From: a virus
DNA: 37,017 bases
Reading direction: 5' to 3' (one strand)
Virus record (IMG/VR): IMGVR_UViG_3300045988_143004
Position 1 is the stretch's first letter. Each line of letters begins with the position of its first letter. Shown here piece by piece: positions 1,008 to 2,400 of this stretch. The notes below the pieces were generated by a model. The model searched no databases, was not told the DNA's origin, and worked only from the letters and a program-made list of their open reading frames with translations. The position numbers and the translations under genes were made by a program.

Positions 1008-1424
1008 CTAGTCTTTTTTATCTTCTTCTTGTTTTAACATCTCATTTACATTAATTGCAGGCAATACCACTGCACCTATATTGGCATTAATAGTATAATT
1101 TGAAACTATAGCACGCACATATGGATACAGAATAGCTATTGCATTAGGTTCAAAATTAAATTTTCCTGTATTATCTGATATCTCAAAAAATCCTGTAACA
1201 GATACTTCCATTTCAAATGGATAATTATTATTCTCAGCATCTTCAAAAATATGCACAAATAATCTTATAACCATATTATTCTCATCAATTATTTTGTTTC
1301 TTTTAATGTTAAAATTTACTCTTATTGTATCATTAGTACTCTGATCAAATTTATTATTCCTTTTAAATTTTATCTCATCCACAAGATAATTCTTGAATTT
1401 TAAAACACTTTCATACTCTGCCAT
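1008..1424 (-). CDS. SecB-like chaperone (138 aa)
   Basis: The length aligns with E. coli SecB. FEMEVSVTGFFEI aligns with FLCEVQQAGIFSI. PNAIAILYPYVRAIVSNYTINANIGAVVLPAINVNEML aligns with [36 protein letters not shown]. The ATG directly abuts the upstream stop (TAGATG). Confidence 0.8.
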   Translation of the reverse strand: MAEYESVLKFKNYLVDEIKFKRNNKFDQSTNDTIRVNFNIKRNKIIDENNMVIRLFVHIFEDAENNNYPFEMEVSVTGFFEISDNTGKFNFEPNAIAILYPYVRAIVSNYTINANIGAVVLPAINVNEMLKQEEDKKD

Positions 1425-1688
1425 CTATACCGCCTCCTTTAAGTCATCTTTCTTGCCAAATCTCTTTATCCAGTTTGTCCAACCAGAAGTTTCTTTATGT
1501 ACCCATAAATTACATTGGTTATTGCACATAGTTGCCATTACATTATATTTAGCTTCGTCCGTTATACTTATTTCTTCTTTTAATCCGCAATTAATTAACT
1601 CTTCTAACAATTCTTCAGGAGTAACTTTATTTAGTTCGTTTTGTAGTACTTCTTTTATTTTTTCTTCGCTTAGTTCAAATATATTCAT
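1425..1688 (-). CDS. Hypothetical 87-aa protein; candidate antitoxin with a Trp/Lys-rich C-terminal tail (NLWVHKETSGWTNWIKRFGKK)
   Basis: Middle gene of a tightly coupled three-gene operon, with the AAAGGAGA RBS. The aromatic and basic C-terminus resembles SecB-binding chaperone-addiction segments. No family was recognised. Confidence 0.45.
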   Translation of the reverse strand: MNIFELSEEKIKEVLQNELNKVTPEELLEELINCGLKEEISITDEAKYNVMATMCNNQCNLWVHKETSGWTNWIKRFGKKDDLKEAV

Positions 1689-1712
1689 ATTATATTTCTC
1701 CTTTCTTGTTAA

Positions 1713-2315
1713 TTAATATATAATCATACTATAATTGTATTCCTTTTGAGTTATCTTTTTAGATATCTTTATATTATCAATTATACAATCATTTTTTACG
1801 CAAATCATTGTTTTGTTGATGCAATTTATTCCTTTTATTTTTTTTGTCGACTCTATTGGATATGGAAAAGTTCTTTTTACTGCATCTATGTCCTCAAGAA
1901 AATTGTTTTTTTCTAAATAATTTAATATAACTCCTAAAATTTTATCATTACTTTGCATAGAATATTTCTCTAATTTTTGTTTAATTAAATCTGCCATAAC
2001 ATTTAGCTTGTTTATATTTTCTCGAGTATCCAAATTTAATATTCGATTTTCATTATTTATTATATCTGCAGTTATAATTCTATAATTGTCAATTATTTCG
2101 TTGGGGTTATTTGGTAATTGTTTGTTTTTTTTATCTTTATACATCTTTATCGTCCAGTCCACAGCATTTGCTCTATCTAGATAAAAATATATGCCTCTAC
2201 CAAGAAATTTTTGATTTGCCTTTTCGTTATCAATTTTAAACTTTTGTGTTTCACTTATTTCTATAGCATATTTTTTAGTGGTTGCATGATATCCTTCTAT
2301 TTTATTATTATTCAT
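1713..2315 (-). CDS. PARP-like (H-Y-type) ADP-ribosyltransferase-fold protein resembling DUF3990 (200 aa); candidate toxin
   Basis: GYHAT (compare LYHGS), FLGRGIYFYLDRANAVDW (compare dFGrGFYlT...A..WA) and C-terminal NKTMICVKN (compare NDQICFht). The order and spacing of these motifs match my recollection of DUF3990. Confidence 0.5.
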   Translation of the reverse strand: MNNNKIEGYHATTKKYAIEISETQKFKIDNEKANQKFLGRGIYFYLDRANAVDWTIKMYKDKKNKQLPNNPNEIIDNYRIITADIINNENRILNLDTRENINKLNVMADLIKQKLEKYSMQSNDKILGVILNYLEKNNFLEDIDAVKRTFPYPIESTKKIKGINCINKTMICVKNDCIIDNIKISKKITQKEYNYSMIIY

Positions 2316-2371
2316 ATTTATTCTCCAAATATACTATATATTACATGAAATTTTAATAACTCTATCAATAT

Positions 2372-2400
2372 ATTATACAGTATTTTACATAATTTGTAAA
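2372..2400 (-). promoter_or_regulatory. Sigma-A promoter TTTACA-17-TATAAT for the 2315-1008 operon, with the palindrome TTTACA-aatta-TGTAAA (2384-2400) over the -35
   Basis: The -10 (plus-strand attata) is at 2372-2377 and the -35 (plus-strand tgtaaa) at 2395-2400. A perfect 6+6 inverted repeat overlaps the -35. Confidence 0.6.

Follow-up and report, generated by a model that had tools for sequence, protein, structure and literature searches.

A divergent, probable CmdTAC-type toxin-antitoxin-chaperone operon on a prophage of uncultured gut Clostridia

The PADLOC system PD-T4-9, since renamed CmdTAC (Mets 2024), is a toxin-antitoxin-chaperone (TAC) system whose toxin is an ADP-ribosyltransferase (ART) (Vassallo 2022 and 2024; Mets 2024). 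It was found in 2022 (PMC9519451) and its mechanism was reported in 2024 (PMC11618068; bioRxiv 10.1101/2024.02.24.581848). Both E. coli CmdTACs are prophage-borne, and homologues have been reported in Gram-positive bacteria. Here we describe a three-gene operon near one end of IMG/VR virus record IMGVR_UViG_3300045988_143004, a stretch of 37,017 nucleotides (nt) that we refer to as the window. The genes encode a predicted toxin, antitoxin and SecB-like chaperone (T, A and C), and the operon probably belongs, as a divergent member carried by a prophage, to the CmdTAC class of anti-phage TAC systems. An earlier note on this DNA had already placed an ART-fold protein in the toxin slot of a T-A-C operon with a SecB-like chaperone, which AF2 modelling, Foldseek and profile homology now support. 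The same note knew of no characterised example of this combination; CmdTAC is precisely such an example, with an ADP-ribosyltransferase in the toxin position of a TAC (PMC9519451; PMC11618068). The architecture is real but already known, and the variant features are the divergence of the toxin and the clade-wide loss of its third catalytic residue. In the later literature, we found nothing on Gram-positive CmdTAC variants or on variants of an H-Y-hydrophobic type.

The locus shares its T-A-C order and its place as prophage cargo with the CmdTACs of E. coli ECOR22 and O112ab:H26. Like E. coli CmdT, the toxin has about 190-200 amino acids (aa) and a predicted diphtheria toxin/PARP-type ART fold, in which Y43 corresponds to Y41, an essential residue of the E. 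coli protein (PMC11618068). The candidate antitoxin may resemble CmdA (N-terminal helices followed by a disordered aromatic chaperone-addiction tail): it too is small, with an N-terminal part that is probably structured and a C-terminal tail rich in aromatic residues. The chaperone, like E. coli CmdC, is a SecB homologue that fits the CmdC model. Unlike in the described CmdTACs, the toxin misses the CmdT hidden Markov models (HMMs) when searched directly, and the third place of its triad, Glu, Asp or Gln in CmdT, is taken by Met (across its clade, by Met, Val or Ile). The antitoxin has 87 aa and ends in EAV, whereas that of O112ab:H26 has 121 aa and E. coli CmdA ends in LAA. The host, finally, is a low-GC gut Clostridia lineage and not E. 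coli.

Classical TACs (HigB1-HigA1-Rv1957 of M. tuberculosis; HigBAC and MqsRAC of E. coli) have the same SecB-like chaperone, aromatic chaperone-addiction tail and operon logic, and E. coli HigBAC and MqsRAC have the anti-phage role that is proposed here. Their toxins are RNases of HigB, MqsR or HicA type and their antitoxins carry a helix-turn-helix (HTH) domain, whereas this locus combines an ART with an antitoxin that has no recognisable DNA-binding domain; the toxin gene has no match to the HigB, MqsR or HicA families in Pfam, NCBIfam or PADLOC. With diphtheria toxin, exotoxin A and PARPs (H-Y-E enzymes) the toxin shares the core fold and the NAD+ site formed by His, Tyr and a second aromatic residue, and the hydrophobic third residue of its clade parallels the H-Y-I/L/V PARPs (PARP10-type mono-ARTs). 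However, it has no significant sequence similarity to diphtheria toxin and PARPs past the motifs, and domain context and targets differ. DarT-DarG and NatR-NatT also set an NAD+-using toxin of ART or ART-like fold under the control of a cognate antitoxin, but they are two-gene, chaperone-free systems with unrelated antitoxins (DarG is a macrodomain protein). DarT targets thymidine in single-stranded DNA, and NatT acts on NAD+ itself.

Operon layout and prophage setting

The operon comprises the following features:

2367-2406, minus strand: promoter/operator block (best promoter match, and conservation across loci)
1713-2315, minus strand: gene 1, CmdT-like ADP-ribosyltransferase toxin, 200 aa (family profile homology, AF2 fold and triad columns)
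1425-1688, minus strand: gene 2, CmdA-like antitoxin, 87 aa (weak PD-T4-9_B match, position and aromatic tail)
1008-1424, minus strand: gene 3, CmdC-like SecB-type TAC chaperone, 138 aa (PD-T4-9_C, Pfam SecB and phrog_21664)
990-1015, minus strand: weak A/U-rich hairpin with a U-run, probable intrinsic terminator (RNA folding)

The three open reading frames (ORFs) were confirmed at these coordinates, and the tight coupling described in the earlier note is as read. Genes 1 and 2 are separated by 24 nt in the sequence, and the ATG of gene 3 (1424-1422) abuts the TAG stop codon of gene 2 (1427-1425), leaving a 0-nt gap. GGAG or GGAGG occurs 7-9 nt upstream of all three starts (2326-2323, 1701-1698 and 1437-1433).

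The window represents a temperate prophage, with an integrase (35632-36708), a CI-like repressor (33703-34149) and a C39-type endolysin (4041-5081). Gene content agrees with the earlier description of the operon as cargo adjoining the lysis genes, and places it at the extreme end of the prophage, beside the attachment region. The GC content of the window is 24-32%. Its large terminase is 58-61% identical to terminases of gut, Streptococcus and Anaerostipes phages, and a megablast search of positions 1-8000 against sequenced phages gave no match.

Family and fold of the toxin

A word-indexed search recovered just seven close relatives of gene 1. When 1.84 billion cluster representatives were searched exhaustively with a profile, 270 relatives emerged at E ≤ 1e-3, nearly all of them 170-250 aa long and aligned end to end. 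Gene 1 also matched phrog_14664 (E = 2.5e-15), a PHROG of unassigned function, and its matches to LupA, UL92 and Fur at E of about 0.01-0.03 were dismissed as noise. We scanned 139 of the 270 relatives individually against profile models, with these results:

PADLOC PD-T4-9_A (CmdT), PDLC04068: 74 of 139 relatives, best E = 7e-12
PADLOC PD-T4-9_A (CmdT), PDLC04069: 69 of 139 relatives, best E = 1.6e-11
Pfam PARP catalytic domain: 23 of 139 relatives, best E = 1.4e-6
Pfam Tox-ART-HYD1: 7 of 139 relatives, best E = 6.6e-4
Pfam ART-PolyVal: 3 of 139 relatives, best E = 2.1e-3
Pfam DUF3990 (PF13151): 1 of 139 relatives, best E = 6.4e-3

Three members of the gene 1 clade itself (P0008, P0011 and P0014) match PD-T4-9_A at about 1e-4, in register. 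An hhalign comparison of the seven-member gene 1 clade with 104 family members outside it, which form a Q-type profile, gave a probability of 99.9% and E = 7.2e-36 over 176 columns. Comparison with E. coli CmdT was made through the PADLOC models.

These counts also bear on the earlier assignment of gene 1 to DUF3990, under which the operon would be a new type of TAC unrelated to CmdTAC. Both families have the H...G-x-G-x-Y-F...A..W style motifs of the H-Y ART superfamily, and the single relative listed above does match PF13151 (E = 0.0064). However, gene 1 itself has no DUF3990 match at E ≤ 1, the CmdT models reach 74 relatives where DUF3990 reaches one, and the profile-profile test puts the clade with the CmdT-type family (probability 99.9%). 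Judged by sequence profiles, the DUF3990 assignment is refuted, and we consider it extremely improbable.

With the 139-sequence alignment, AF2 produced a model with pLDDT 94.3 and pTM 0.90, whereas the 7-sequence alignment gave an unusable one (pLDDT 52). Foldseek searches of the PDB with the gene 1 model placed NatT (probability 1.0) and the catalytic domain of diphtheria toxin (1dtp and 4ow6; 0.97) on top, and ART-PolyVal proteins lead in the viral library BFVD (best E = 1.9e-6). A PDB sequence search with the seven-member clade profile found nothing; with the broader-family profile it found non-significant PARP10 motif matches (E about 2) and a match to ELL2 that is spurious. The hhalign alignment of the family with the diphtheria toxin A fragment, whose sequence was checked as identical to 1DTP, covers the N-terminal half only, with a probability of 17.5%.

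The GYHAT, LGRGIYFY..A..W and MICV motifs that had suggested an ART are present in gene 1, as are the Trp/Lys-rich tail of gene 2 and the SecB signature of gene 3 that were recorded with them. In motif-level alignments, which are non-significant alone, H10 and Y43 coincide with the catalytic His and Tyr, respectively, and W54 takes the place of the second aromatic residue (gene 1 to PARP10/diphtheria toxin registers H10/H21, Y43/Y54 and W54/Y65). Across the 139 relatives, H10, G39, G41, Y43, A51, W54 and C172 are invariant or nearly so. Because of the family matches, the profile-profile test, the fold and these motif registers, gene 1 is predicted to be a CmdT-family ART with a diphtheria toxin/PARP-type fold, and not a DUF3990 protein. 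The CmdT family is related to PARP, diphtheria toxin and DUF3990 at the level of the ART superfamily only.

Chaperone, antitoxin, operon control and conservation

The best match of gene 3 anywhere is PADLOC PD-T4-9_C (E = 1.1e-18, 65.7 bits), with residues 6-132 aligned to profile positions 4-127 of 135. It also matches phrog_21664 (E = 2.2e-21) and, as the earlier note led us to expect, Pfam SecB PF02556 (E = 4e-9; score 37 bits, cutoff 26). The PNxxxxxPYxR...LPxxN signature is present. Scores against the NCBIfam SecB equivalogs are at most 29 bits, with cutoffs of 103-244, and because gene 3 lies so far under these it is not a housekeeping or export SecB. By these profile matches, gene 3 is a CmdC-type SecB homologue, with a predicted SecB-fold TAC chaperone as its product.

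For gene 2, a putative CmdA-like antitoxin, position and tail say more than the sequence matches do. A gene of 80-101 aa fills the middle slot in 9 of 9 related loci, and residues 1-36 of gene 2 are conserved within the clade. The C-terminal tail is aromatic and basic, rich in Trp and Lys (Y48, W62, W70, W73 and F77); W62, W70 and W73 are kept in the clade, and seven of the nine homologues have an aromatic residue in the W70 column. The tail is a candidate chaperone-addiction region. The more distant middle proteins end in AA (EAA, SAA, GAA and IAA among loci L012, L017, L019 and L021, and FAA in Javan248), as does the ClpXP degron of E. coli CmdA (PMC11618068; Mets 2024). A match of gene 2 to Cmr5 (E = 4e-4) was rejected as a short helical match without CRISPR context.

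The promoter upstream of gene 1 has a -35 TTTACA (2400-2395), a 17-nt spacer and a -10 TATAAT (2377-2372). With 11 of 12 consensus positions it is the best sigma-70-type match in the region, and promoter-like sites as a class occur at chance frequency in this 25% GC DNA (27 found, 23.6 expected). An inverted repeat, TTTACA-N5-TGTAAA (2384-2400), covers the -35 and part of the spacer. The promoter and palindrome pointed out earlier are both present, but the palindrome alone is not above chance, as 57 of 100 shuffled sequences contained at least one match at no more than one mismatch. What makes the two credible is that a 40-nt block (2367-2406) with the -35, the repeat and the -10 is conserved while its surroundings have diverged: it is identical bar one base in L001-L004, L010 and L011, where the encoded proteins are only 43-78% identical to those of the window and the flanking DNA is unalignable. 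L005, L015 and L016 carry the operon without the block. A repressor probably acts at this palindrome, which is conserved and lies across the -35.

At the other end of the operon, an 8-bp hairpin overlaps the stop codon of gene 3. The segment 965-1015 folds at -7.6 kcal/mol (z = -2.65; 3 of 200 shuffled sequences were as stable), and the hairpin was not called by a consensus terminator scan, which requires three G-C pairs.

Two further observations concern regulation. A gene convergent with the operon (415-738, plus strand) encodes a 107-aa protein in which a Cro/CI-type HTH is fused to a Spo0E-like domain. It is present in L001-L004, L006, L008 and L010, every related locus with the 40-nt block, whereas L015 and L016 have neither the gene nor the block. 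In L001, this protein is 56% identical to that of the window, and the block about 98%. The HTH/Spo0E-like protein may be a candidate regulator of the operon, or may act on host sporulation control. Elsewhere, TTTCACATTTTGTGATTT (inverted repeat TCACA-N3-TGTGA) occurs three times around the point where the CI-like repressor gene starts (33443-33465, 33687-33709 and 33737-33759), and these copies are probably operators of the lysis-lysogeny switch. Control of the TAC operon by the main phage repressor is unsupported, since TCACA-N3-TGTGA differs from the TAC palindrome.

The co-conservation of the three genes that the earlier note anticipated is found in related phages: the T-A-C order occurs in 9 of 9 loci examined, eight of them metagenomic (21-66% toxin identity) and the ninth in Streptococcus satellite phage Javan248. 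In a comparison of five loci, the identities of T, A and C to the window copies drop together:

L010: T 66%, A 77%, C 78%
L005: T 52%, A 60%, C 67%
L001: T 48%, A 43%, C 54%
L012: T 34%, A 32%, C 52%
L017: T 25%, A 25%, C 39%

Prophages whose endolysins are of three different types (Amidase_2, Peptidase_M15_3 and Peptidase_C39_2) carry the cassette directly beyond their lysis genes, a pattern that fits a mobile defence cassette. An identical operon was detected on at least 7 contigs from different samples. On a 198-kb contig with an identical operon, a host gene of 826 aa flanks it and shares 99% identity with a gene of Clostridium sp. CAG:492. The host of the identical copy (L006, ENA ERZ28616606 scaffold_60, and L023) belongs to a lineage of the human gut that has not been cultured. 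A clade-profile search of 185,579 GTDB representative genomes found no relative of gene 1, the same search found one contig in IMG/VR, and among sequenced phages gene 1 was matched only by a human faecal fragment. Since no GTDB species-representative genome has a relative, the gene 1 clade is so far metagenome-only.

The Javan248 locus (L022; MK448383.1, 1669-2944) holds a complete T-A-C trio, each member annotated as "hypothetical protein": a toxin of 173 aa (YHGT...WLGNGVYFF, with Gln as the third residue), a middle protein of 98 aa whose last residues are EFAA, and a SecB-like protein. A SecB-like gene also occurs in two other Javan satellite phages, and CmdTAC-like systems appear to be present, unannotated, on streptococcal phage satellites.

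The third catalytic position and the role of the operon

Several points weigh against a place in the CmdTAC class. Searched alone, gene 1 has no meaningful match in Pfam, NCBIfam or PADLOC, and both PADLOC CmdT models are empty at E ≤ 1; the Foldseek matches in the PDB have E-values of only 1e-3 to 1e-2 and TM-scores of 0.42-0.45. Gene 2 matches PD-T4-9_B weakly (E = 0.0085, residues 6-32 to profile positions 2-28), and the same model is matched by 3 of 9 positional homologues, at best with E = 0.0015. The terminus of gene 2 (...LKEAV) is EAV, not the LAA that serves as a C-terminal ClpXP degron in E. coli CmdA (PMC11618068; Mets 2024). Under the published calling rule, CmdT and CmdC HMM matches within two genes (CmdA being left out by the authors as too variable), the locus would not be called (PMC11618068). 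The element may also be decaying, because its endolysin looks frameshifted. Lastly, column 170 (gene 1 numbering) is Gln in 100 and Glu in 5 of the 139 relatives and Met in gene 1, and column 168 is Gln in 52 and Glu in 41 and Lys in gene 1. Catalytic competence of gene 1 is not assured, because M170 and K168 replace these Gln/Glu residues.

The CmdT logo has been given as H-Y-[E/D/Q] (PMC11618068). We take column 170 as the third position of the triad from the family conservation pattern and the strand order in the model, not from structural superposition; it is not anchored to E148 of diphtheria toxin, because hhalign covered only the N-terminal half. As gene 1 has no acidic or amide residue at either column, the conclusion about the third residue stands whichever of the two is catalytic. 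In the hhalign alignment, M/V170 is set opposite the near-invariant Gln of the family. The approximately 21 closest cluster representatives (26-75% identity) all have Met, Val or Ile at 170 and Lys or Arg at 168, and the H, G-x-G-x-Y, A..W and C172 stay invariant in the same representatives. Because H, Y, G-x-G, W and C are invariant in these proteins, we infer that the change at 170 is selected and clade-wide and does not reflect decay. The target and chemistry of gene 1 are uncertain, as its clade has Met/Val/Ile for the Gln/Glu of the family.

One possibility, to which we give rather low odds, is that the gene 1 clade represents ARTs with altered chemistry or target, which would resemble the H-Y-hydrophobic PARPs (mono-transfer, substrate assistance), modify a target other than adenine N6 in GA of mRNA, or simply hydrolyse NAD+. 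E. coli CmdT acts on GA in single-stranded RNA, at adenine N6. PARP10-type H-Y-I enzymes are active mono-ARTs able to modify RNA ends. The replacement of both columns in all of the approximately 21 closest representatives, with the other motifs invariant, speaks for such a change, as does the top structural match, NatT, which is an NAD-targeting toxin of a toxin-antitoxin (TA) pair. However, the rest of gene 1 aligns end to end with Q-type CmdT relatives, and most of the family has Gln instead of Glu already, so the third residue may matter less. In a broader version of this idea, which we regard as comparably doubtful, the clade (H-Y-Met/Val/Ile with Lys/Arg two residues upstream) could be a functionally distinct CmdT-type branch that has a different reaction or target (another base, a phosphate end or NAD+ hydrolysis) and is operator-controlled by the HTH/Spo0E-like protein instead of the antitoxin. 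So far, the gene 1 clade is known only from uncultured low-GC gut Firmicutes, in their phages and prophages.

The missing third residue, taken with the endolysin of the same prophage being split across three frames, could also mean that gene 1 encodes a pseudo-ART without catalytic activity and that the prophage is defective, with the operon decaying in it as a remnant. We consider this very unlikely. The substitution is clade-wide, yet T, A and C are intact, the promoter is conserved and the NAD site is invariant at 26-75% identity. The identical operon recurs on at least 7 contigs from different samples, and a dead toxin would need neither an antitoxin nor a chaperone.

As for the endolysin itself (3736-5081, minus strand), it is apparently broken across three reading frames. 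A 346-aa ORF (4041-5081) contains the Peptidase_C39_2 catalytic part and the start of an SH3 domain, a different frame (about 3976-4080) encodes the remainder of that SH3 domain, and a further SH3 domain has its own 79-aa ORF (3736-3975). The homologues in L011 (451 aa) and L015 (461 aa) are intact. Either the prophage is decaying or homopolymer runs have been misassembled.

Returning to a functional CmdTAC-type operon, CmdT and CmdC homology, the ART fold with intact His, Tyr and second aromatic residue of the NAD site, the operon structure and the promoter were computed here, and the remaining mechanism is modelled on E. coli. In the lysogen, the three proteins would be held in a complex, by analogy with the 1 T : 1 A : 4 C complex of E. 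coli. The gene 2 protein would aid folding of the ART and hold it inactive, and the SecB-like tetramer would grip the aromatic tail of the antitoxin, shielding it from proteolysis. A structural protein of a superinfecting phage would then compete for the chaperone, so that the antitoxin is let go and broken down; in CmdTAC as described, capsid triggers the release of the chaperone and ClpXP degrades the antitoxin. With NAD+, the liberated ART would ADP-ribosylate RNA (most likely mRNA), bringing translation to a halt. The infection would be aborted, which would protect the resident prophage and the population of lysogens. On its own, E. coli CmdT is non-toxic, CmdA being required for its folding (PMC11618068); a non-toxic gene 1 expressed alone would therefore not refute the TAC model.

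The same parts could instead serve chiefly as an addiction or stabilisation module, which would penalise loss or excision of the prophage and would not sense incoming phage. The architecture is TA-like with a labile antitoxin, the operon sits at the extreme prophage end beside the attachment region, and several unrelated prophage backbones carry it, all of which would suit such a module. Both characterised CmdTACs, HigBAC and MqsRAC are, however, anti-phage defences with the chaperone as sensor (PMC11618068). Post-segregational killing would also be of little use to an integrated prophage. Addiction as the chief role is thus unlikely, and the two roles are not mutually exclusive.

Other genes of the prophage include a second candidate defence cargo, an Abi_alpha abortive-infection gene (PF14337, E = 2e-38; 34174-34971, plus strand) between the CI-like repressor and the integrase, at the opposite prophage end from the operon. 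A pair of divergently transcribed genes near the operon (2661-3494, plus strand; 129 and 144 aa) has no Pfam match and is probably separate cargo. The pair travels with the operon in the closest loci (L006-L010) and not in more distant ones, and by eye the N-terminus of the 144-aa protein resembles an AbrB/SpoVT-type fold. The motif TGTGTCGAAATTTGTCGA (minus strand TCGACA-AATT-TCGACA) is shared by positions 944-995, just 3′ of the TAC terminator, and 18354-18405, upstream of a 95-aa head-module gene, and could be a promoter or regulator site that the phage uses twice. The structural gene module also contains a tRNA-Trp that the phage encodes (17914-17987, minus strand; anticodon CCA, 67.8 bits in Rfam).

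No new class of system is opened by this operon. As a probable CmdTAC, it would extend the class to prophages of uncultured gut Clostridia, and because PADLOC-type HMMs miss such toxins, the census of CmdTAC in Gram-positive bacteria and their phages is probably an underestimate. The clade-wide replacement of the third residue would provide a natural experiment on the weight of that residue in nucleic-acid ADP-ribosylation.

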